64,000 nt of DNA from Patescibacteria group bacterium (GTDB taxonomy: Bacteria; Patescibacteriota; Patescibacteriia; SG8-24), in NCBI GenBank assembly GCA_041667185.1, contig JBAYFM010000006.1, positions 6,591 to 70,590 on the forward strand, in the 5' to 3' direction. The position numbers and the translations under genes were made by a program. Numbering within the stretch: the stretch's first letter is position 1; the number at the start of each line of letters is the position of its first letter. Under the pieces are notes generated by a model that was not told the DNA's origin, did no database searches, and worked only from the letters and a program-made list of their open reading frames with translations. This document shows positions 17,277 to 49,770 of the stretch, piece by piece.

Positions 17277-17299
17277 GCTGCTCCGCCCGCTTCACCCCC

Positions 17300-17570
17300 C
17301 CCATTGCTTCACCGCTCCAAATACTCCAGCACTCTCAAACTCCCTGACTCCGTCTCTCCCTGACTCCAGTACTCCAGAACTCCAGCACTCTCCCAATTGT
17401 TAGTGACCTCGGTGTCAGACACCGAGGAGATGGAGAGTGCGGAAGTGGAGGAGTGGGGGAGACACGATAAAACTTCAGCCCTCCAGCACTCCCTGACTCC
17501 GTCTCTCCCGCACTCCCGCACTCCGCCACGTCGTTCGCGAACGACGTGGCTCCCGCACTCTCCCAAGTTG
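17300..17570. repeat. dispersed composite palindromic repeat element (longest copy, R3)
   Basis: Multiple ctccagcactc / gactccgtctctccctgactcc units, an internal hairpin cctcggtgtcagacaccgagg, and the core palindrome at 17528-17547. Confidence 0.75.
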
Positions 17571-17667
17571 ACAACCCGCGAGGGGTGGATTAAGGTCGGC
17601 AACAGCTCTTTTCGCGGCCTGACGACAGGTCGGGTTTCTGTAGGTCATTGAAAATCCAAAGGAGTCG

Positions 17668-26747: not shown

Positions 26748-28334
26748 ATGCCCGAAGGCGTACCGAAACCGGTCCTGCTGCTGGTGCTCGATGGTTGGGG
26801 CGTGGCCCCGGCCGGCGAAGGCAATCCCGTTGAGGCCGCCGAGACCCCGGTCTTCGACGACTTGGTCCGTACTTATCCGACCGCGACCGTGCGCGCTTCC
26901 GGCGAAGCCGTCGGTTTGTCTTGGGGCGAGATGGGCAACTCCGAGGTCGGCCATCTGACGATCGGCGCGGGCAAGATCTTCTACCAGTCGCTGCCGCGCA
27001 TCAACATGCAGATCCAGACCGGGGCGTTCTTCGAGAACGACGTCCTGATCAAGGCTGCCGAACACGCCAAGAAGAACAATTCAGCGTTCCATATCATGGG
27101 CATCCTGAGTCCGGGCAACGTCCACGGTTCGGACGAGCACATCTATGCGCTGCTCGAATTCGCCAAGCGTCAGGGACTCACCAAGGTCTTCGTGCACGCG
27201 TTCATGGACGGTCGTGATTCCATCTTCAACATGGGCATCGAGTTCATGCGCGCACTGCAGAAGAAGATGACCGAGCTCGGCGTCGGGCGCGTCGCCTCGA
27301 TGGGCGGCCGTTACTGGGGCATGGACCGCGATAACCGCTGGGACCGGGTCGAGAAAGCCTACAATGCCATCGTCGGCAAGGACGGCGTCGCCAAAAAATA
27401 CGAAGATCCGATCAAGGCCATCGAGGAATCTTACGCCGCCAAGGTCTACGACGAAGAGATCGAGCCGGCCATCTTCACCGAGGGTGGCCAGCCGGTCGGT
27501 CCCGTCAAAGACGGCGACGCTCTGGTCTTCGCGAATTATCGTCCGGACCGTTCGCGCCAGATCGCGCAGGCGTTCTGCATCCCGTCGTTCGCCAAGTTCC
27601 AGCGCGACTACCTGCCCAACCTGTATTTCGCCACGATGATGGAATACGAGAAGGGGACGCCGGCCAAGATCATGTATCCGCCGGAGAACATCGACACCTG
27701 TCTCGCCAAGATCGTCTCGGAAGCCGGCTTGAAGCAGCTGCATATCGCCGAGACGGAAAAATACGCGCACGTCACGTTCTTCATGAACGGCATGCGCGAG
27801 GAGCCGTATCCGGGCGAGGATCGCGTGATCATCCCGTCGCCGCGCGTCTCGTCCTATGATCAGGCACCGGCCATGTCCACGCCAAAGATCGCCGAGCGCA
27901 TCGTCAAGGAATTTGAGGAGAAGAAATACGACCTGATCGTCTGTAATTTCGCGAACGCCGACATGGTCGGGCACACTGGTAAGTTCGAAGCCACCAAACA
28001 GGGCTGCGAGGTCATCGATCAGTGCTTGGGGACGATCGTGAACGCGGCGCTGCAGCACGGCGGCGCGATCGTGATCACGGCCGACCACGGCAACGGCGAG
28101 GAGGTCATCAACCTGCAGACCGGCGAGCTCGACAAAGAGCACAGCACCAATCCCGTGCCGTTCATCGTCGTCGCCGAGAGTTTCCGCGGCCAGGCGTCGC
28201 CGTCGGGCGAGGTGATCGGCGGCGATCTTTCGATCATGCCGCCGGTCGGCATGTTGGCCGATGCGGCGCCGACGGTCCTGAAACTGCTGGGCGTGCCGCA
28301 ACCGAAGGAATTGACCGGCTCGCCGCTCATTTAG
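26748..28334 (+). CDS. gpmI: 2,3-bisphosphoglycerate-independent phosphoglycerate mutase (tandem paralog, copy 2)
   Basis: VLDGWG, GNSEVGHLTIGAGK, ADHGNGE. Same architecture as copy 1, ~40% identity. Confidence 0.88.
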   Translation: MPEGVPKPVLLLVLDGWGVAPAGEGNPVEAAETPVFDDLVRTYPTATVRASGEAVGLSWGEMGNSEVGHLTIGAGKIFYQSLPRINMQIQTGAFFENDVLIKAAEHAKKNNSAFHIMGILSPGNVHGSDEHIYALLEFAKRQGLTKVFVHAFMDGRDSIFNMGIEFMRALQKKMTELGVGRVASMGGRYWGMDRDNRWDRVEKAYNAIVGKDGVAKKYEDPIKAIEESYAAKVYDEEIEPAIFTEGGQPVGPVKDGDALVFANYRPDRSRQIAQAFCIPSFAKFQRDYLPNLYFATMMEYEKGTPAKIMYPPENIDTCLAKIVSEAGLKQLHIAETEKYAHVTFFMNGMREEPYPGEDRVIIPSPRVSSYDQAPAMSTPKIAERIVKEFEEKKYDLIVCNFANADMVGHTGKFEATKQGCEVIDQCLGTIVNAALQHGGAIVITADHGNGEEVINLQTGELDKEHSTNPVPFIVVAESFRGQASPSGEVIGGDLSIMPPVGMLADAAPTVLKLLGVPQPKELTGSPLI

Positions 28335-28418
28335 AGTTGGGGAGTCAGGGAGAGGCGAAGCGGGGGAGATCGAGTCTCTCCCTGACCCCGTCTCTCCCTG
28401 ACTCCGTCTCTCGCATTT
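28335..28418. repeat. dispersed repeat element (copy R4)
   Basis: ggggagtcagggagag...ctctccctgaccccgtctctccctgactccgtctctc. Confidence 0.7.
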
Positions 28419-33858: not shown

Positions 33859-34260
33859 ATGACCGACGCACAACTCAAGAAGATCTTCGCCATCAAGACC
33901 ATCGCCGCGGTCGGCTTGTCGTCGAACGCCGCGCGGCCGAGTTACGGCGTCTGCTCGTATCTGCAGGGCCGCGGTTATCGGATCATCCCGGTGAATCCCA
34001 ACGAGACCGAAGTTCTGGGGGAGAAAGCCTATCCGGACCTGGACGCCGTGCCGGGGCCGGTCGAGATCGTTCAGATCTTCCGCCGGCCGGAAGCCGTGCC
34101 GGAGATCGTCGAAGCCGCCATCCGCAAAGGCGCCCAGGTCGTTTGGATGCAGGACGGAGCCGGAAATCCGGACGCGGCGCGCCGCGCCGAAGCGGCTGGC
34201 CTGCTGGTCGTGGCGGATGATTGCATGTTGCGCCAGCACCGGAGGTTGTTCGGTGAGTAG
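33859..34260 (+). CDS. CoA-binding domain protein (YccU/YneT-like)
   Basis: 133 aa; IAAVGLSSNAARPSYGVCSYLQGRGYRIIPVNP Rossmann-like CoA-binding fold. Confidence 0.7.
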   Translation: MTDAQLKKIFAIKTIAAVGLSSNAARPSYGVCSYLQGRGYRIIPVNPNETEVLGEKAYPDLDAVPGPVEIVQIFRRPEAVPEIVEAAIRKGAQVVWMQDGAGNPDAARRAEAAGLLVVADDCMLRQHRRLFGE

Positions 34261-34261
34261 G

Positions 34262-34390
34262 GTAGCGGAGAGTGGGGGAGACGAAGTGTTGAAGTACTGG
34301 AGTACTGAAGTACGGAAGCTTAACCTCAAACCTCCAGCACTCCCGCACTTCAGCACTTCAGTACTCCTGCATTTCCTCACCCCCCCCATC
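34262..34390. repeat. dispersed repeat element (copy R5)
   Basis: ggagagtggggg...cctccagcactcccgcacttcagcacttcagtactcc, followed by the cassette terminator/leader. Confidence 0.65.
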
Positions 34391-34435
34391 TTCATCAAAA
34401 AACCGCCTCGTAGGCGGTTTTTTGACCATTATTCC

Positions 34436-34506
34436 AGTCTTTGTTAAGGTGCTTTCCGCAGCCGCTGGTTGCCGTGTTCTTTCACTAACATCATCGGAGG
34501 TAGAGA
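34436..34506 (+). promoter_or_regulatory. conserved cassette leader (TTGTTAAGGTG box + GC hairpin + GGAGGTAGAGA RBS), copy 1
   Basis: Near-identical to 35198-35264 and 36766-36841, and partially to 36000-36073. Confidence 0.5.
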
Positions 34507-34974
34507 ATGAATCCGAAGACGATCGTGGTCTCTCTTTTCGCCTTGTTTCTTTTGGCAGGGTGCGCCAAGTTTCGCTTCGATGTTCCGGACGGCTTCAAGA
34601 TCATCGAAGAGCAGAGGGATAATTTTGGCCAGGGCAAGTGGCAGCTCACGAACGAGGCGGGCAATAGCATGATTTTTGTCAACCTAATGTCAGCCGAGGT
34701 TTGGCCGCTGGATAAGCAAGTGGACGAGTACCTATCTCTCATCGCTGATCTGGATGGTGTGATCACCGAGAAAGTGATCACGGATTACAGAAGTTCCGCG
34801 AGGCTGGAGTTCACGTACGTCGCGCAACAGTCTCACAGGACTGGTCGGGTCTTCTTTCGTCAGTTGACTGAAAGAAATATGACCATCGTCGTTTTTGGTT
34901 GGTGGTTGGATTCCCAGGCTGCGACCGCCGGACCAGCCTTCGAAGCCGTCGCCGCTTCGGCCGACTATAAGTAA
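34507..34974 (+). CDS. paralogous small lipoprotein, cassette 1
   Basis: Lipobox LLAGC; 155 aa; C-terminal FEAVAASADYK shared with cassettes 2-4. Confidence 0.65.
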   Translation: MNPKTIVVSLFALFLLAGCAKFRFDVPDGFKIIEEQRDNFGQGKWQLTNEAGNSMIFVNLMSAEVWPLDKQVDEYLSLIADLDGVITEKVITDYRSSARLEFTYVAQQSHRTGRVFFRQLTERNMTIVVFGWWLDSQAATAGPAFEAVAASADYK

Positions 34975-35007
34975 CGGGTTCTTCATCAGCTCCGATTTTC
35001 TTCAGCT

Positions 35008-35038
35008 CGCCGCGCTCTCTCAAGGGCGCGGTTTTTTT
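35008..35038 (+). terminator. rho-independent terminator of cassette 1
   Basis: ccgcgctctctcaagggcgcgg plus T7. Homologous terminators follow cassettes 2-4. Confidence 0.6.
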
Positions 35039-35099
35039 CGCAACTATCAGAAAACCTCGGCGTCAGCCGAGGTTGAATAAAAGACGCGAATCCCCCGCA

Positions 35100-35150
35100 G
35101 TTTTAGCGGAGAGGGATCAGAACTCCCACACTCCCACACTCTCCGTCTTC
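35100..35150. repeat. dispersed repeat fragment (copy R6)
   Basis: agcggagagggatcagaactcccacactcccacactctccgtcttc. Confidence 0.5.
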
Positions 35151-35264
35151 ATCAAAAAACCGCCCCGTAGGCGGTTTTTTGACCATTACTTCAGCCTTTG
35201 TTAAGGTGCTTCCCGCAGCTGCAAGCTGCCGCGTTCTTTCATCAATATCATCTGGAGGTGGGGA

Positions 35265-35741
35265 ATGAATTTGAAAACGATCATCGTATCCGTATTCGCG
35301 CTGTGTCTTTTTGCAGGCTGCGCCGCTCCGCAGGCGCATCTGATCGTGCCGGACGGCTGGCAGGCCACCTCGATACACGATCTCGAGTCCGGCTTCAGCC
35401 AGACGTTGGCAAACGAGGGTGAGCAGGCCTACATCTTCGTCAAAATAGCCCCGGATAAAACTTATCCGCGCGTTAAGGAACAGCTGGACTCGGATCTCCG
35501 TTACATCAAAAGTGTTGGCGGCAAGCTGATCGAGTCCCTGGTTGTTGCCGATCAGAGCTTCGCGCGGCTGGCCTTCACGATCGAATTGGCAGATGGCACT
35601 CTGGGCATCGGCAGGATCATCTTGCGCAAGTCGACCAAGGGCAAGCGGACGGTTGCTGTCAGGGGTGTTTGGCCGCTGGATAAGGATGCGGTCATCAGGC
35701 CGGACTTCGAAGCCATTGCCGCTTCAGTCGACTACAAGTAG
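35265..35741 (+). CDS. paralogous small lipoprotein, cassette 2
   Basis: Lipobox LFAGC; 158 aa; C-terminal FEAIAASVDYK. Confidence 0.65.
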   Translation: MNLKTIIVSVFALCLFAGCAAPQAHLIVPDGWQATSIHDLESGFSQTLANEGEQAYIFVKIAPDKTYPRVKEQLDSDLRYIKSVGGKLIESLVVADQSFARLAFTIELADGTLGIGRIILRKSTKGKRTVAVRGVWPLDKDAVIRPDFEAIAASVDYK

Positions 35742-35799
35742 CAGGTTCGCCACCAGCTCCGATTCTCTTCAGTTCACCGCGCTCTCTCATGAGCGCGGT

Positions 35800-35990
35800 T
35801 TTTTTCGCCATTTTGAGGTGAAGAGACGGAGTCAGGGAGAGACGGAGTTGGGGAGATACGAAGATACGGAGTCACGTCGTTCGCGAACGACGTGACGGAG
35901 CCATATCGCTCACAAGCGACGCGACTCCGTCTCTCTGTTACTTCCTGACTCCGTCTCTCCCGCACTCCTGCACTCCCATACTTTCCACTA
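35800..35990. repeat. dispersed composite palindromic repeat element (copy R7)
   Basis: gagacggagtcagggagagacggag ... core palindrome 35874-35893 ... gactccgtctct ... cctgactccgtctctcc. Confidence 0.75.
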
Positions 35991-36073
35991 TTTCGGCCGC
36001 GTGTTAAGGTGGCGGCAGTCGATCGGATGTTCGTCGCACCTTTTTAACAACGCCGCTTCAGAGGAGGTTCAGG

Positions 36074-36568
36074 ATGAAGATCTCGCTGCTAGCGATCCTG
36101 GGTCTGGCCCAGTTGTTTTCTGCTGTCGATTGTTCGCCAGCCGGCGAGCCGAGACTCTGGTCCGAGTCGCCTCAGGGCTGGAAAGTCACGGCCGAACTGG
36201 TCCGCAGCGGTCGGGCGATGTTGGTCCTGAATCCGGAAAAGGCCGGTCTCGAGGCCGGATTCGGCGTGATCTGCGCGCCGGCCGGCAAGATGCCGCCTGA
36301 AGTCAGGTTCCGGTCGCTGGCGAGACAGGCCCGGGAAATGGCCGGCGCCGTGGACATCGAGGCGTACGACGCGGCCAAAAAGTTCTTTGTCCTGTCTTAC
36401 GCCTACGAGTCGGTTTCCGGCGAGGCTTACGTCGCTCGCGTCACCGTGAAGACGGATTCCTCAGGACTCGGCCAGACTCTGGTCATCTCCGGTTATTGGC
36501 CGGAGGCGGTCGATCCGGACCTGGCCCGCGTTTACGCCGACTTCGTCGCCTCGATCGATTTCAAATGA
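36074..36568 (+). CDS. paralogous small secreted protein or lipoprotein, cassette 3 (most diverged)
   Basis: Signal peptide with AVDCS; 164 aa; C-terminal ADFVASIDFK. Confidence 0.55.
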   Translation: MKISLLAILGLAQLFSAVDCSPAGEPRLWSESPQGWKVTAELVRSGRAMLVLNPEKAGLEAGFGVICAPAGKMPPEVRFRSLARQAREMAGAVDIEAYDAAKKFFVLSYAYESVSGEAYVARVTVKTDSSGLGQTLVISGYWPEAVDPDLARVYADFVASIDFK

Positions 36569-36614
36569 GTCCGTTCTGACCTGCTCCCGCGTCTCCTAGA
36601 GGCGCGGTTTTTTT

Positions 36615-36760
36615 CACCACTTTGAGGTGAAGAGACAGAGTCAGGGAGTGATGGAGAGACGGAGAGATGTCGCTCGCGAACGACACGGCCTCGTCTCTCC
36701 CTGACTCCGTCTCTCCTGCACTCCAGTACTCCCGCACTCTCCACCCACCCATCGTTTTGA
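36615..36760. repeat. dispersed repeat element with a degenerate core (copy R8)
   Basis: gagacagagtcagggag...ATGTCGCTCGCGAACGACAC...ctctccctgactccgtctctcctgcactccagtactcc. Confidence 0.7.
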
Positions 36761-36841
36761 CCATTCCCCCGGCCTTTGTTAAGGTGCTCTCCGCAGCCGC
36801 GGGCTGCAGTGTCCTTTCACCCAGATCATCGGAGGTAGAGA

Positions 36842-37312
36842 ATGAGCCTGAAAACGATCGTCGCGTCCGTCTTCGCGCTGTTCCTGTTGGCGGGGTGTGC
36901 GCCCAAGTTCCAAGTCACCGTGCCTGAAGGCTGGAAAGTGGCTAAGGAATTGAACGAAGAGGGCGTGCAAGCGAAACTCCTTGTCAACGCAAAGGAGGAT
37001 ATCGCGATCAAGGTCTTCTGCGTGCCGGCCGAACAAGTGCCGGTCGAGGAAGCTCTGAAGTCGACGGTCGACCTTGTGAACCAGGCTCAGGGCCAGATCG
37101 TCGAACAGGACCTCGCCGCTGACAAGAGCTCGTCCCGGGTCGTTTTTACGGTTACGGTTGATGGCACTGATCTTGCCGGCCGTCAGGTGTTCAAGCTGAG
37201 CAGCTATAAGCACGCCAAGGCGTTGCTTATCTCCAGTGTTTGGTTGGCCGCGCAAGATGCCGAGGCTGCCAAGGCTTTTGAGATCATCGCCGCTTCAGCT
37301 GACTTCAAGTAG
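36842..37312 (+). CDS. paralogous small lipoprotein, cassette 4
   Basis: Lipobox LLAGC; 156 aa; C-terminal FEIIAASADFK. Confidence 0.65.
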   Translation: MSLKTIVASVFALFLLAGCAPKFQVTVPEGWKVAKELNEEGVQAKLLVNAKEDIAIKVFCVPAEQVPVEEALKSTVDLVNQAQGQIVEQDLAADKSSSRVVFTVTVDGTDLAGRQVFKLSSYKHAKALLISSVWLAAQDAEAAKAFEIIAASADFK

Positions 37313-37494
37313 CCGCCCAGCGTCAGTTTCGTTTCCGATTCTCTCAGTTTGCCGCGTCTCGTCAGACGCGGTCTTTTTTATCCATTTATCCACAAAAGGT
37401 GTCAGGTACTTTTGGGGTGCCAAAGGTACCAGGTACCTTTTGCCCGGAAATCGGCGGTGCGGTACACTAGCCGGGCATTCATTAATATTTCGTT

Positions 37495-37944
37495 GTGACC
37501 ATGGATGAACTCGCCCGACAACTGGATCGTCCCGGGGACAACGCGCATTGTCCCGGCGTTTTCGTGCTGCGTGGCGGCCAAGTGCTCGTCGGTCTGCGGC
37601 ACTATGCCAAGCACGGCATCGCCGCGACCGATCTCTGGACCATCCCCGGCGGCCGCTGCGAAACCGGGGAGACCATCGGCCAGGCGGTCCGGCGCGAAGC
37701 GGCCGAGGAAGCCGGCCTGACCGAACTCGAGCTCACCGACTGGTTGGCCGAGATACCCGGCGCCCGGGCCGGCGACATCGTCCCGCTCTTCATCGGCCGT
37801 TCGTCCCAGCCGCCGCGCCTCATGGAGCCGGAGAAGTTCGCCGAGTGGCGCTGGTGCGATCCCGCCGCCGTGCCGCGGCCGTTCATCAATCCCGAAGCCC
37901 TGATCCTGCTCCAGGCGTGGGTCCGGTCGCATCCCCAAAACTGA
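37495..37944 (+). CDS. Nudix hydrolase
   Basis: Nudix box GGRCETGETIGQAVRREAAEEAGL. Confidence 0.8.
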   Translation: MTMDELARQLDRPGDNAHCPGVFVLRGGQVLVGLRHYAKHGIAATDLWTIPGGRCETGETIGQAVRREAAEEAGLTELELTDWLAEIPGARAGDIVPLFIGRSSQPPRLMEPEKFAEWRWCDPAAVPRPFINPEALILLQAWVRSHPQN

Positions 37945-44524: not shown

Positions 44525-44640
44525 TCCTTCAATTCTTTACTCTCCCAAACTCTGTCACGCCGTTCGAGAGCGACATATCTCCGTCTCTCCCGCACTCCTG
44601 CACTCCAGCACTCCGTCACTTCTTAATCCAATCTTATTTT
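44525..44640. repeat. dispersed repeat element (copy R9, degenerate core ACGCCGTTCGAGAGCGACAT)
   Basis: ...atctccgtctctcccgcactcctgcactccagcactccgtcac... Confidence 0.65.
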
Positions 44641-45239: not shown

Positions 45240-45345
45240 TTTTTTAGAAGTGACGGAGTCAGGAAGTGTAGGAGAGACGGAGTCGTTGAGAGATTCTCCC
45301 GAACTCCGTCTCTCCCTGACTTCGTCTCTCACAAAAAACCCCGCA
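45240..45345. repeat. dispersed repeat element (copy R10)
   Basis: gacggagtcaggaagtgtaggagagacggagtc...gaactccgtctctccctgacttcgtctctc: inverted arms. Confidence 0.7.
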
Positions 45346-45378
45346 GCGGAATGCTGCGGGGCGTAGAGTCGAAAGAAC

Positions 45379-49639: not shown

Positions 49640-49770
49640 TTCGTTGGGCTGTCTTTTTTTTGTGGATGTGGAGAGTGGGGTGGGAGTGCTGGAGTGCTGG
49701 AGTGCTGGAGTGCTGGAGTGCTGGAGTGCTCTCATACTCCGTCTCTCCCACACTTCCAAACTCCCACACC
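49640..49770. repeat. dispersed repeat element (copy R11) containing a (GGAGTGCT)5 octanucleotide microsatellite
   Basis: gtggagagtggggtgggagtgctggagtgctggagtgctggagtgctggagtgctctcatactccgtctctccc. Confidence 0.75.

Follow-up and report, generated by a model that had tools for sequence, protein, structure and literature searches.

A Tandem Array of Predicted Single-Gene Lipoprotein Units in Patescibacteria: Evidence for Homogenized Ends and Old Protein Cores

Introduction

Most Patescibacteria (the Candidate Phyla Radiation) have never been cultured and depend on a host, and their surface proteins are largely unannotated. What are we to make, then, of four neighboring, diverged, lipoprotein-like genes in such a genome, each of them set between what look like its own promoter and its own terminator? 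A preliminary description of the locus held that whole promoter-coding-terminator units had been duplicated, that the coding parts then diversified while the regulatory parts were retained, and that a variable surface-protein family of the antigenic or phase-variation kind was the outcome. Here we examine the locus within the 64-kb stretch of DNA that was analyzed (the window), and in related genomes. Taken as a whole, the best explanation has in our estimate a probability of about three in four: the array consists of tandem single-gene units of one unannotated family with a Mog1/PsbP fold, whose ends have been homogenized, whose cores are old, and whose products would serve as binding modules at the cell surface.

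The Array and Its Relatives

The open reading frames of the window include four co-oriented paralogs on the + strand, which match exactly the positions and sizes (155-164 aa) given before: c1 (34507-34974, 155 aa), c2 (35265-35741, 158 aa), c3 (36074-36568, 164 aa), and c4 (36842-37312, 156 aa). Their paralogy is supported by tblastn (c1-c2, 4e-24; c1-c4, 3e-21; c2-c4, 9e-23; c3-c4, 5e-11), and c3 is linked to c1 via a profile only. The protein identity to c1 is 37% for c2 and c4 and 18% for c3; the earlier figure of about 25-35% thus comes close for three copies but overstates c3. The mature part of each protein is about 135 aa long.

The lipobox test ([LVI][ASTVI][GAS]-C) is passed by c1 (LLAGC, with Cys19), c2 (LFAGC), and c4 (LLAGC), in which a Lys-containing n-region and a hydrophobic core precede the box, and these three are predicted to carry type II (lipoprotein) signal peptides. 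The test is failed by c3, a member of an old subfamily, which has lost the lipobox (SAVDC); its orthologs in relatives have AAGC. An L(L/F)AGC box in three of the four proteins and a common C-terminal tail had both been noted from the start, and the tail, A-S-x-D-[YF]-K, proves invariant in all four on alignment. In the 64-kb window, a motif search found neither Lgt nor LspA. No tRNA was found in the window either, and there is thus no sign of an integration site there.

The setting of the locus is one of housekeeping genes, and the site of the array is conserved in relatives, between DUF2207 and CoA-binding genes on one side and NUDIX/UvrD on the other. At this same chromosomal site the relatives have one, three, four, or five members, and the order of the members differs as well. 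A locus search with a narrower alignment found one locus among GTDB species genomes and three in metagenomes. Subfamilies are common to several genomes. Both c3 and c4 have orthologs elsewhere, which are 67-68% identical in amino acids and stable across genomes (67% for the c4 ortholog at locus L001). The genome under study also has a fifth, unlinked paralog, P0007, at locus L003. The conserved neighbors in relatives (p360, p57, p59, p107, and a 523-aa protein) have no match in Pfam, so the context offers no functional clue. One singleton adjoins an MFS/RND-like/MarR operon, on the opposite strand.

Promoters, Leaders, and Terminators

A promoter-like site with sigma-70-like features precedes each gene on the + strand. 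Sites 1 (34422-34450), 2 (35179-35207), and 4 (36757-36785) have TTGACC, 17 nt, and TGT-TAAGGT, an extended -10; site 3 (35982-36010) has the same spacing and -10 and a weaker -35, TTTCCA, unlike the c3 ortholog at L001, where the -35 is TTGACC. The 64 kb contain the sequence TGTTAAGGTG at exactly four places (0.75 expected), each about 65 nt 5′ of the ATG of one paralog, and the stringent pattern TTGACN-spacer-TGnTAnnnT has four sites in the window against 0.035 expected. TAAGGT matches TATAAT at only three of six positions, and a generic promoter scan did not call the TAAGGT boxes of the paralogs. The layout of -35, 17 nt, and extended -10 is found 5′ of most family members (L001, L003, L006, L007, L014, L015, and L017). 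Across the family the -10 takes the forms TAAGGT, TACAGT, and TAATGT, which vary at the inner positions alone, as expected of a true -10.

The leaders are about 55 nt long and contain a small hairpin, a GTTCYTT box, and a strong GGAGGT ribosome-binding site. In leader 1 (34451-34506, + strand), there is a 6-bp hairpin at 34458-34472, a GTTCTTT box, and the Shine-Dalgarno sequence GGAGGT at 34496-34501. In other subfamilies the hairpin has kept its position and changed its sequence. The notion of the leader as a structured, riboswitch-like element was dropped, as the folding energies are unexceptional (z from +1.2 to -1.9), leaving a small hairpin conserved in position. Rfam gave no match in the locus at the gathering score. 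Permissive matches, all sub-threshold (miRNA-precursor models on the long hairpins and two sRNA models close to terminators 1 and 2), were set aside as meaningless.

Downstream of each gene, again on the + strand, is a putative intrinsic terminator: terminator 1 at 35009-35039 (hairpin 35009-35032, a 10-bp stem with seven G-C pairs, and a T7 run), terminator 2 at 35776-35806 (hairpin 35776-35799), terminator 3 at 36587-36614 (hairpin 36587-36607), and terminator 4 at 37351-37379 (hairpin 37351-37372), the last three also with a T run. All four stems are G+C rich, 9-10 bp long, and followed by T6-T7. In at least five other genomes, most members, singletons and those of re-ordered arrays among them, come with a homologous CCGCGC...GCGCGG terminator. 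That the members in relatives each have their own promoter and terminator supports transcription of the genes as single units. Sequence and comparison together thus argue strongly that each paralog is, by prediction, its own promoter-coding-terminator unit. In this respect the preliminary description, which had assigned each gene its own leader and rho-independent terminator, is upheld. It had also called the regulatory parts near-identical, which fits c1, c2, and c4, whose upstream regions are 76-85% identical in one comparison and 80-84% in another (an identity matrix), and does not fit c3, where the identity to the others is 52-56% and 53-60%, respectively.

An Unannotated Family on a Well-Known Fold

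Scans of the four paralogs against Pfam and NCBIfam gave nothing significant, and none of 19 family members matched Pfam with E below 0.01. The LpqN (Lpp-LpqN), DcrB (DUF1795), and PsbP (PF01789) profiles reached their gathering score with none of the 19; a single member hits PsbP at a sub-threshold E of 0.028. A profile search against PDB sequences yielded nothing below E = 0.2. The expectation that no known lipoprotein family would match has therefore held in all three collections. The family is small, with eight matches among 5.8 billion proteins and 39 cluster representatives among 1.84 billion.

Structure prediction was applied to c1 and c3 (model pLDDT 89 and 82.5, respectively). Both models are alpha-beta-alpha sandwiches with a central antiparallel sheet, and both match members of the Mog1/PsbP/DUF1795 group significantly. 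The best structural matches are 3lyd, LpqN, and MTC28, the nearest proteins being the actinobacterial LpqN/MTC28/Apa group and DcrB. As modeled, the fold of the paralogs is clearly Mog1/PsbP/LpqN-like. The earlier statement that there is no recognizable domain is thus accurate for domains defined by sequence, and gives way where structures are compared. The four paralogs are one unannotated family, missed by current domain libraries, on a well-known fold.

The likeness to the LpqN/MTC28/Apa group and to Jonesia 3lyd, which are Mog1/PsbP-like secreted proteins or lipoproteins, is one of fold, and sequence similarity to Pfam or PDB entries is undetectable. Unlike the LpqN/MTC28/Apa proteins, the paralogs lack Pro/Ala-rich extensions, which within the family are confined to a 174-aa subfamily absent from the window; the family also has its own conserved C-terminal AASADF[KR] tail and belongs to a different phylum. 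DcrB is an enterobacterial inner-membrane lipoprotein encoded by a single-copy gene; it has no sequence match to the paralogs, and nothing seen here points to their taking part in lipoprotein maturation. The Mog1/PsbP fold as such serves many unrelated roles.

Old Cores, Homogenized Ends

Were whole units duplicated and their regulatory parts then retained? At synonymous third positions of the cores, 110 of 208 are identical (0.529), against 0.523 expected at saturation from a codon-usage baseline; orthologs range from 0.65 to 0.79. Within c4, the 5′ module (promoter, leader, and signal peptide) has 34 sites in common with the in-genome paralogs and 6 with the ortholog, whereas the core has 100 with the ortholog and 14 with the paralogs. 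The phylogenies of these two segments are thus incongruent within c4, as in the inter-paralog recombination clusters of the lpl type, and the identity matrix points the same way. Two long blocks tie the array to the P0007 locus. One, of 296 nt (36609-36904), spans a repeat, promoter 4, and the signal peptide of c4, and matches L003 9776-10063 at 85.5% identity; the other, of 151 nt (34949-35099), matches L003 10452-10602 at 89.4% identity. Within the latter, the c1 3′ flank (35040-35099), including a hairpin at 35055-35072, copies the 3′ flank of P0007.

These comparisons show protein cores that are old and orthologous across genomes, a 5′ module that has been homogenized within the genome in c1, c2, c4, and P0007, and a 3′ module (tail and terminator) that has been likewise homogenized in c1, c2, and P0007. 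Because the cores are saturated and the 5′ module of c4 follows the genome rather than the ortholog, we take the similarity of the ends to reflect concerted evolution and not retention; the duplication scenario of the preliminary description does not survive this result. Strong purifying selection on the ends could have added to their similarity, but it leaves unexplained why the ends of c4 resemble those of its paralogs more than those of its ortholog.

The homogenization would have come about by gene conversion or recombination acting on the conserved ends, in which case the signals for expression and export would evolve together and each core would remain distinct. Once processed by Lgt/Lsp, the proteins would be lipid-anchored at the outer face of the single membrane, where, to judge from their fold, they may act as binding modules. 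Conservation in the family centers on the N-terminal segment with VPxGW, the final strand, and the C-terminal helix with its AASADFK tail. These stretches may make up a conserved membrane-proximal part, with the remainder variable, so that different paralogs could bind different surface partners or ligands. The shared promoter and leader suggest common regulation. It is also conceivable, although on balance unlikely, that the 5′ and 3′ modules are handles for recombination by which the lineage swaps and re-deploys old, divergent cores between loci. Such cassette exchange would determine an episymbiont's surface repertoire, and possibly also its host range; the family-specific leader, with its hairpin and GTTCYTT box, would be a new shared control element.

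Comparison with Variable Lipoprotein Loci

The lpl locus of S. aureus is a variable locus of tandem lipoprotein paralogs, in which recombination between paralogs makes the evolutionary unit differ from the open reading frame (Tsuru and Kobayashi, 2008, PMC2568036). The present array is like lpl in all these features, and in a copy number that differs between genomes. It is unlike lpl in that the ends are conserved and the center varies; the conserved recombination site of lpl lies in the middle, with variation on either side of it. Family and fold of the proteins are different, too, and assemblies of this locus from the same population show no variation.

Variable lipoprotein families are also known from Mycoplasma, vlp being one of them. 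The vlhA (PMC6258824) and Vpma (PMC2268961) genes form their own transcription units, in which a highly conserved 5′ region and lipoprotein signal peptide precede a divergent mature part. They are switched by a GAA or poly-A tract that lies within the promoter or close to it, or by Xer-type inversion (PMC6258824, PMC2268961). Our array resembles the Mycoplasma families in its conserved 5′ region and signal peptide ahead of divergent mature parts, and in belonging to a small-genome, host-dependent organism. It differs in having no switch device and no internal tandem repeats in the mature proteins, and in being identical in three assemblies.

Alternative Explanations

Could the array nonetheless be a true antigenic or phase-variation system, with cassettes switched or recombined often, as in Mycoplasma vlp/vsp/vlhA or Borrelia vlp/vsp? 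The conserved 5′ expression and signal-peptide module ahead of differing mature parts, the signs of recombination at cassette ends, the varying copy number and order among related genomes, and the 8-nt tandem repeats just 5′ of three promoters, which recall the GAA repeats of vlhA (PMC6258824), would all suit it. However, within the locus no homopolymer or short repeat tract is found in any promoter spacer or coding sequence, and there is no invertible segment. A full promoter on every copy means that there are no promoterless, silent cassettes; the vicinity has no recombinase, and none of the promoters is flanked by inverted repeats on both sides. Both c3 and c4 have ordinary, stable orthologs, and the 8-nt repeats are not linked to the family. 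Comparison of assemblies points the same way: three others (from ENA, JGI, and Logan samples) are 100.0% identical over 33859-37944, 8-nt arrays included, as consensus sequences, which would miss minor variants. Nothing indicates stochastic switching; the antigenic or phase variation first proposed is not supported, and we consider such a system improbable. The possibility that the four paralogs are co-transcribed as a plain operon, with the hairpins as attenuators or mRNA-stabilizing structures, we rate lower still, as very improbable. All genes have one orientation and close spacing, and read-through is conceivable, but a G+C-rich stem and T run follow every gene, a conserved promoter box stands at a fixed distance 5′ of each, the gaps accommodate large insertions (see below), and the identical promoter and terminator type accompanies singletons and re-ordered arrays.

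Two rivals concern function. Immunity genes typically form runs of diverged paralogs in tandem, which recombination has shaped (PMC9484751), and each lipoprotein might neutralize a different envelope-targeting toxin, as in Tsi/Tli or T7SS immunity arrays. This seems hardly probable given the housekeeping surroundings, the absence of any neighboring gene for a toxin, a secretion system, or an Rhs/polymorphic toxin, both here and at every related locus, and best structural matches (3lyd, LpqN, MTC28) that are not immunity proteins. Alternatively, the proteins might be LpqN/DcrB-type lipoproteins of envelope biogenesis or lipid handling, duplicated per substrate; perhaps they help a symbiont that is auxotrophic for lipids to take these up from its host. 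For both models, the best matches among solved structures include LpqN ("lipid binding protein") and DcrB, and all the proteins are by prediction lipoproteins that sit at the outer side of the cytoplasmic membrane. We nevertheless find this doubtful: in sequence the paralogs resemble neither the LpqN nor the DcrB family, the syntenic loci have no linked transporter gene, and the family occurs in very few genomes, which would be unexpected for a core envelope function. Tandem single-gene units coding for surface binding modules remain our preferred reading. The family is of an ordinary kind; its twist is that the promoter and signal-peptide parts have probably been kept alike within the genome by recombination, while the cores are old and different. 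The locus thus defines a small lipoprotein family and assigns its fold, gives a clean comparative picture of how promoters and terminators are laid out in a Patescibacteria genome, and illustrates that concerted evolution can act on the signals for expression and export and not on the functional cores. Should the proteins mediate contact with host cells, the family would offer a way into host specificity; if not, it simply joins the other lipoprotein families that have expanded.

Hairpin Repeats

The array is interspersed with hairpin repeat elements. One, at 34262-34392, lies between the CoA-binding gene and cassette 1, is built of 8-nt tandem units (-54 kcal/mol, z = -5.6), and belongs to a dispersed family. 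The other two are at 35812-35990, with the central palindrome CACGTCGTTCGCGAACGACGTG (-92 kcal/mol, z = -8.2), and at 36622-36750 (z = -3.7). A copy had been said to flank each cassette. The three full elements agree with this, but between c1 and c2 there is only a degenerate remnant of 8-nt units (35100-35150), and no hairpin repeat is found 3′ of c4. The intergenic gaps of 290-330 nt tolerate insertions of such elements, 130-180 nt long. The 8-nt repeats are spread genome-wide and missing from the arrays of relatives; the hairpin repeats are confined to this genome, and the dispersed repeat is absent from every relative's array examined. Being missing there, the repeats are ruled out as a general part of the duplicated unit, and are not the interleaved cassette component that they were taken for.

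A symmetrical, terminator-like hairpin (A6-stem-T6; inverted repeats I5 and I20) at 34395-34425 abuts the -35 box of cassette 1, and a second copy (I5) is found at 35152-35182, before cassette 2. This hairpin is common to cassettes 1 and 2 and absent before c4 and P0007. The upstream blocks of c4 and P0007 are exceptional in another way: they have one whole repeat element in common.

Predicted Single-gene Transcription Units

The four co-oriented paralogs of the preliminary description stand, with exact positions, on the forward strand as ORFs of 155 aa (c1, 34507–34974), 158 aa (c2, 35265–35741), 164 aa (c3, 36074–36568) and 156 aa (c4, 36842–37312). Their database entries, WCT10_03015 to WCT10_03030 from a 'Patescibacteria group bacterium' MAG, call them hypothetical proteins. 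Pairwise identity among c1, c2 and c4 is 37–38% (tblastn E = 1e-21 to 1e-24). The most remote is c3, which has 18% identity to c1, without a direct match to it by tblastn, and reaches 5e-11 to c4. A lipobox had been reported for three of the four, and it is indeed c1, c2 and c4 whose N-terminal lipoprotein signal peptide has L(L/F)AGC at its end; the reported common C-terminal tail, A-S-x-D-[YF]-K, is present in all four. In c3 the signal region (36074–36133) has SAVDC where orthologs elsewhere have (F/L)AAGC. SAVDC is no lipobox; this genome has thus lost the motif from c3, yet the c3 ORF is intact and three other assemblies carry it unchanged. The G+C content is 52–59% over most of the array (34500–37500), being lowest in c1 (52%), compared to 61–68% in the flanking genes.

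As had been claimed, each gene is followed by a predicted rho-independent terminator, a 9–10-bp G+C-rich hairpin with a T6–T7 run. Each of the four start codons has the decamer TGTTAAGGTG about 65 nt upstream of it, and the 64 kb contain no further copy (four in total, 0.75 expected). TTGACC lies 17 nt ahead of it in c1, c2 and c4; the c3 −35 sequence is TTTCCA. The stringent pattern TTGACN-spacer-TGnTAnnnT has four matches in the window (0.035 expected), three of them in these cassettes. One layout is common to most family members in the related loci L001, L006, L007, L014 and L015, in L003 (a second contig of the same MAG) and in the five-gene array L017: an upstream terminator, TTGAC(C/T/G/A), a 17-nt spacer, TGn-TA(A/C)(G/A/T)GT, in most members a small leader hairpin and a GTTCYTT box, GGAGG(T), ATG, and a CCGCGC...GCGCGG hairpin with a T run about 35 nt past the stop codon. 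The predicted −10 differs at inner positions only (TAAGGT, TACAGT, TAATGT) and the upstream TG is retained, as would be expected of a genuine extended −10 element. The position of the leader hairpin is constant, but its sequence differs by subfamily (GCAGCC...GGCTGC vs. GGCCCG...CGGGCC), and within one subfamily it shows one compensatory C-G to T-A change. Since leader folding energies are unremarkable, we limit the claim to a small conserved stem.

A plain operon of four co-transcribed genes is very unlikely, because the same predicted signals travel with singletons (P0007, P0010, and P0014) and with re-ordered arrays (in L001 a c4-type gene precedes the c3-type), and because the gaps between cassettes in the window have accepted hairpin insertions of 130–180 nt between terminator and promoter. 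The comparative evidence is thus strong that c1–c4 are, as predicted from their signals, single-gene transcription units, which supports the independent transcription proposed earlier.

Conserved Ends, Old Cores

Among c1, c2 and c4, nucleotide identity is 76–85% over the upstream 95 nt and 72–75% over the signal-peptide codons, 29–60% along the core (the divergent mature part), 81–86% over the last seven codons and 61–85% downstream. Synonymous sites in the core are saturated: where the residues agree, 110 of 208 third positions match (0.529), compared to 0.523 expected at saturation from codon usage and 0.65–0.79 in orthologous pairs between genomes. The c4 core is 77% identical in nucleotides (67% in amino acids) to its L001 ortholog, but the two share only 73% upstream and 58% over the signal-peptide codons. 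In these two segments c4 is closer to c1, c2 and P0007, an unlinked fifth paralog in the same genome (80–84% and 72–85%, respectively). Site by site, between −88 and +63, c4 sides with its in-genome paralogs at 34 positions and with the ortholog at six, while in the core this turns to 14 for the paralogs and 100 for the ortholog.

The saturation, the segment identities and the site counts together contradict the history suggested initially, in which whole units were duplicated and their coding parts then diverged, taken here as a recent event: the cores are too old, and the c4 core tracks the ortholog while its 5′ end tracks the paralogs. The simplest reading of the sequences is that the ends evolve in concert while old cores persist. 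Gene conversion or recombination would act on the conserved ends, with a breakpoint near the lipobox, and would leave the cores in place. Of all features of the locus, this apparent concerted evolution of a module for expression and export stands out most.

P0007 and c4 have a 296-nt common upstream block (85.5% identity) that spans a whole hairpin element, promoter, leader and signal peptide, and P0007 and c1 a 151-nt common block at the 3′ end (89.4%) that reaches 65 nt past the terminator. P0007 is thus flanked on its 5′ side like c4 and on its 3′ side like c1. The 5′ module of c3 resembles that of its own ortholog, and c3 has taken no part in homogenization. The five members in L017 have five different signal peptides; homogenization is therefore limited to one subgroup and does not extend to the whole family.

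Interleaved Hairpin Repeats

The repeats are long imperfect hairpins of 8-nt units, GGAGnnnn in one arm and nnnnCTCC in the other, many centered on the palindrome CACGTCGTTCGCGAACGACGTG. They fold far better than shuffled controls (z −3.7 to −8.2), and an Rfam search found no family match. About a dozen intergenic places in the window carry them (CTCC-N4 pattern, 15 matches vs. 0 expected), among them 325–385, 1100–1240, 17290–17580, 28325–28415, 34262–34392, 35812–35990, 36622–36750, 44553–44627, 45243–45352 and 49675–49770; several stop right at a TTGAC box. A copy of the repeat had been noted beside each cassette. The element is no component of the cassette, because it is dispersed genome-wide and, found in loci of this genome only, is absent from every related array. 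It is rather an intergenic element settled between terminators and promoters, with one exception, the copy carried along inside the c4/P0007 block. An AGGTAC-rich palindromic sequence past the c4 terminator (37395–37450) is unlike these elements.

At the start of the window, 300-nt stretches at 1–300 and 763–1062, 762 nt apart, are 94% identical. They reflect a tandem duplicate of a 183-aa minus-strand gene (457–1008), each copy adjoining a hairpin element, just upstream of NusG (1235–1780) and SecE (1835–2023).

Fold, Likely Function, and Rival Readings

The preliminary description saw no recognizable domain. By sequence this holds, as profile searches of Pfam, NCBIfam and PDB sequences gave no match; by structure it does not. 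The AlphaFold model of c1, made from an eight-sequence alignment, is confident (pLDDT 89, pTM 0.82), with three strands, a helix, four strands and a helix in order. The most divergent paralog, c3, modeled separately (pLDDT 82.5), matches 3lyd (14.4), LpqN (12.9), MTC28 (12.2), PsbP (11.2), DcrB (11.1) and Tsi3 (11.0), a ranking the same as from c1; a Foldseek search returned the same set. The two models thus clearly point to a Mog1/PsbP-type fold for the family, whose nearest solved relatives are extracytoplasmic proteins and lipoproteins of actinobacteria. Though alike in structure to LpqN, MTC28 and DcrB, the window proteins fail the sequence criteria of those families. Conservation peaks in the VPxGW segment just after the lipobox Cys, in the last strand (GxWP), and in the helix and tail at the C-terminus, and is lowest in the first helix, strand 4 and the early loops.

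The fold is a ligand- or protein-binding scaffold, used in LpqN, DcrB, PsbP, Mog1, Eag chaperones and T6SS immunity proteins. We suppose that the proteins are lipid-anchored binding modules on the outward face of the membrane, their variable parts giving different specificities, a view held loosely because the fold serves such different settings. Lipoproteins that handle lipids are unlikely, as the expected transporter was not found at the loci, and an array of immunity proteins is quite improbable, the expected toxin or secretion system being likewise not found there. The locus had also been likened to antigenic or phase-variation families. True phase variation now has little probability: no switch was found at the locus, and over 33859–37944 the sequence is 100.0% identical in three more assemblies of this organism, obtained from different samples, with no variation at the array in the population so sampled. 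The sole inter-assembly difference seen is in the CoA-binding gene, where L012 lacks 36 nt in frame (34019–34054).

The architecture has analogs among known families of tandem lipoprotein genes. In the lpl cluster of S. aureus, inter-paralog recombination likewise uncouples the evolutionary unit from the ORF; its conserved region, however, occupies the center, whereas here the ends are conserved (PMC2568036). Variable lipoproteins of Mycoplasma resemble the window array in their conserved 5′ regions and signal peptides and differ in having defined switches (PMC6258824, PMC2268961).

Distribution and Neighborhood

A word-indexed search of 5.8 billion proteins returned only eight family members, four being the queries themselves. 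When 1.84 billion cluster representatives were searched exhaustively with a profile, 39 passed E ≤ 1e-3 and 15 passed E ≤ 1e-10. All 20 inspected have a lipobox-type N-terminus. Most also have a similar C-terminus, which reads AASADF[KR] in the closer members and has degenerated further in the distant ones. By the conserved C-terminal pattern, a member was detectable in one of 185,579 species-representative genomes. The family is new by sequence and narrow in distribution, with a known fold and a known arrangement. In a neighbor-joining tree, subfamilies (including the c3 type) are common to several genomes; a 174-aa subfamily with a Pro-rich linker is absent from the window. One clade unites c4, its L001 ortholog and the P0008/P0010 members, and c1, c2 and P0007 are known from this genome only.

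On one side the array is bordered by DUF2207 and CoA-binding genes, and on the other by genes for NUDIX and UvrD proteins. At the equivalent site, L001 has three members (NUDIX and CoA-binding proteins 95% and 81% identical in amino acids to those of the window), L005 at least two, L007 one and L017 five. The site is therefore a long-standing home of the family, with content differing between species. In relatives, two membrane proteins (~57–59 aa) and a 360–380-aa protein precede the array and a ~105-aa membrane protein follows it (L001, 2420–3912 and 6112–6435; L017, 3777–4922 and 8339–8653; L007, 3008–4144; L014, 50–1339). No Pfam match was found for any of these proteins, and the genes are all missing from the window. 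The L007 contig (CAYPMU010000056.1) is labeled 'uncultured Gammaproteobacteria' yet is syntenic with the Patescibacteria locus (DUF2207, CoA-binding, p360-like, family member, UvrD), and is probably mis-binned. P0007 (WCT10_04715; L003, 10001–10477) is a singleton flanked by an unannotated 523-aa gene and, in convergent orientation, a gene for a PilB/T2SSE-type ATPase.
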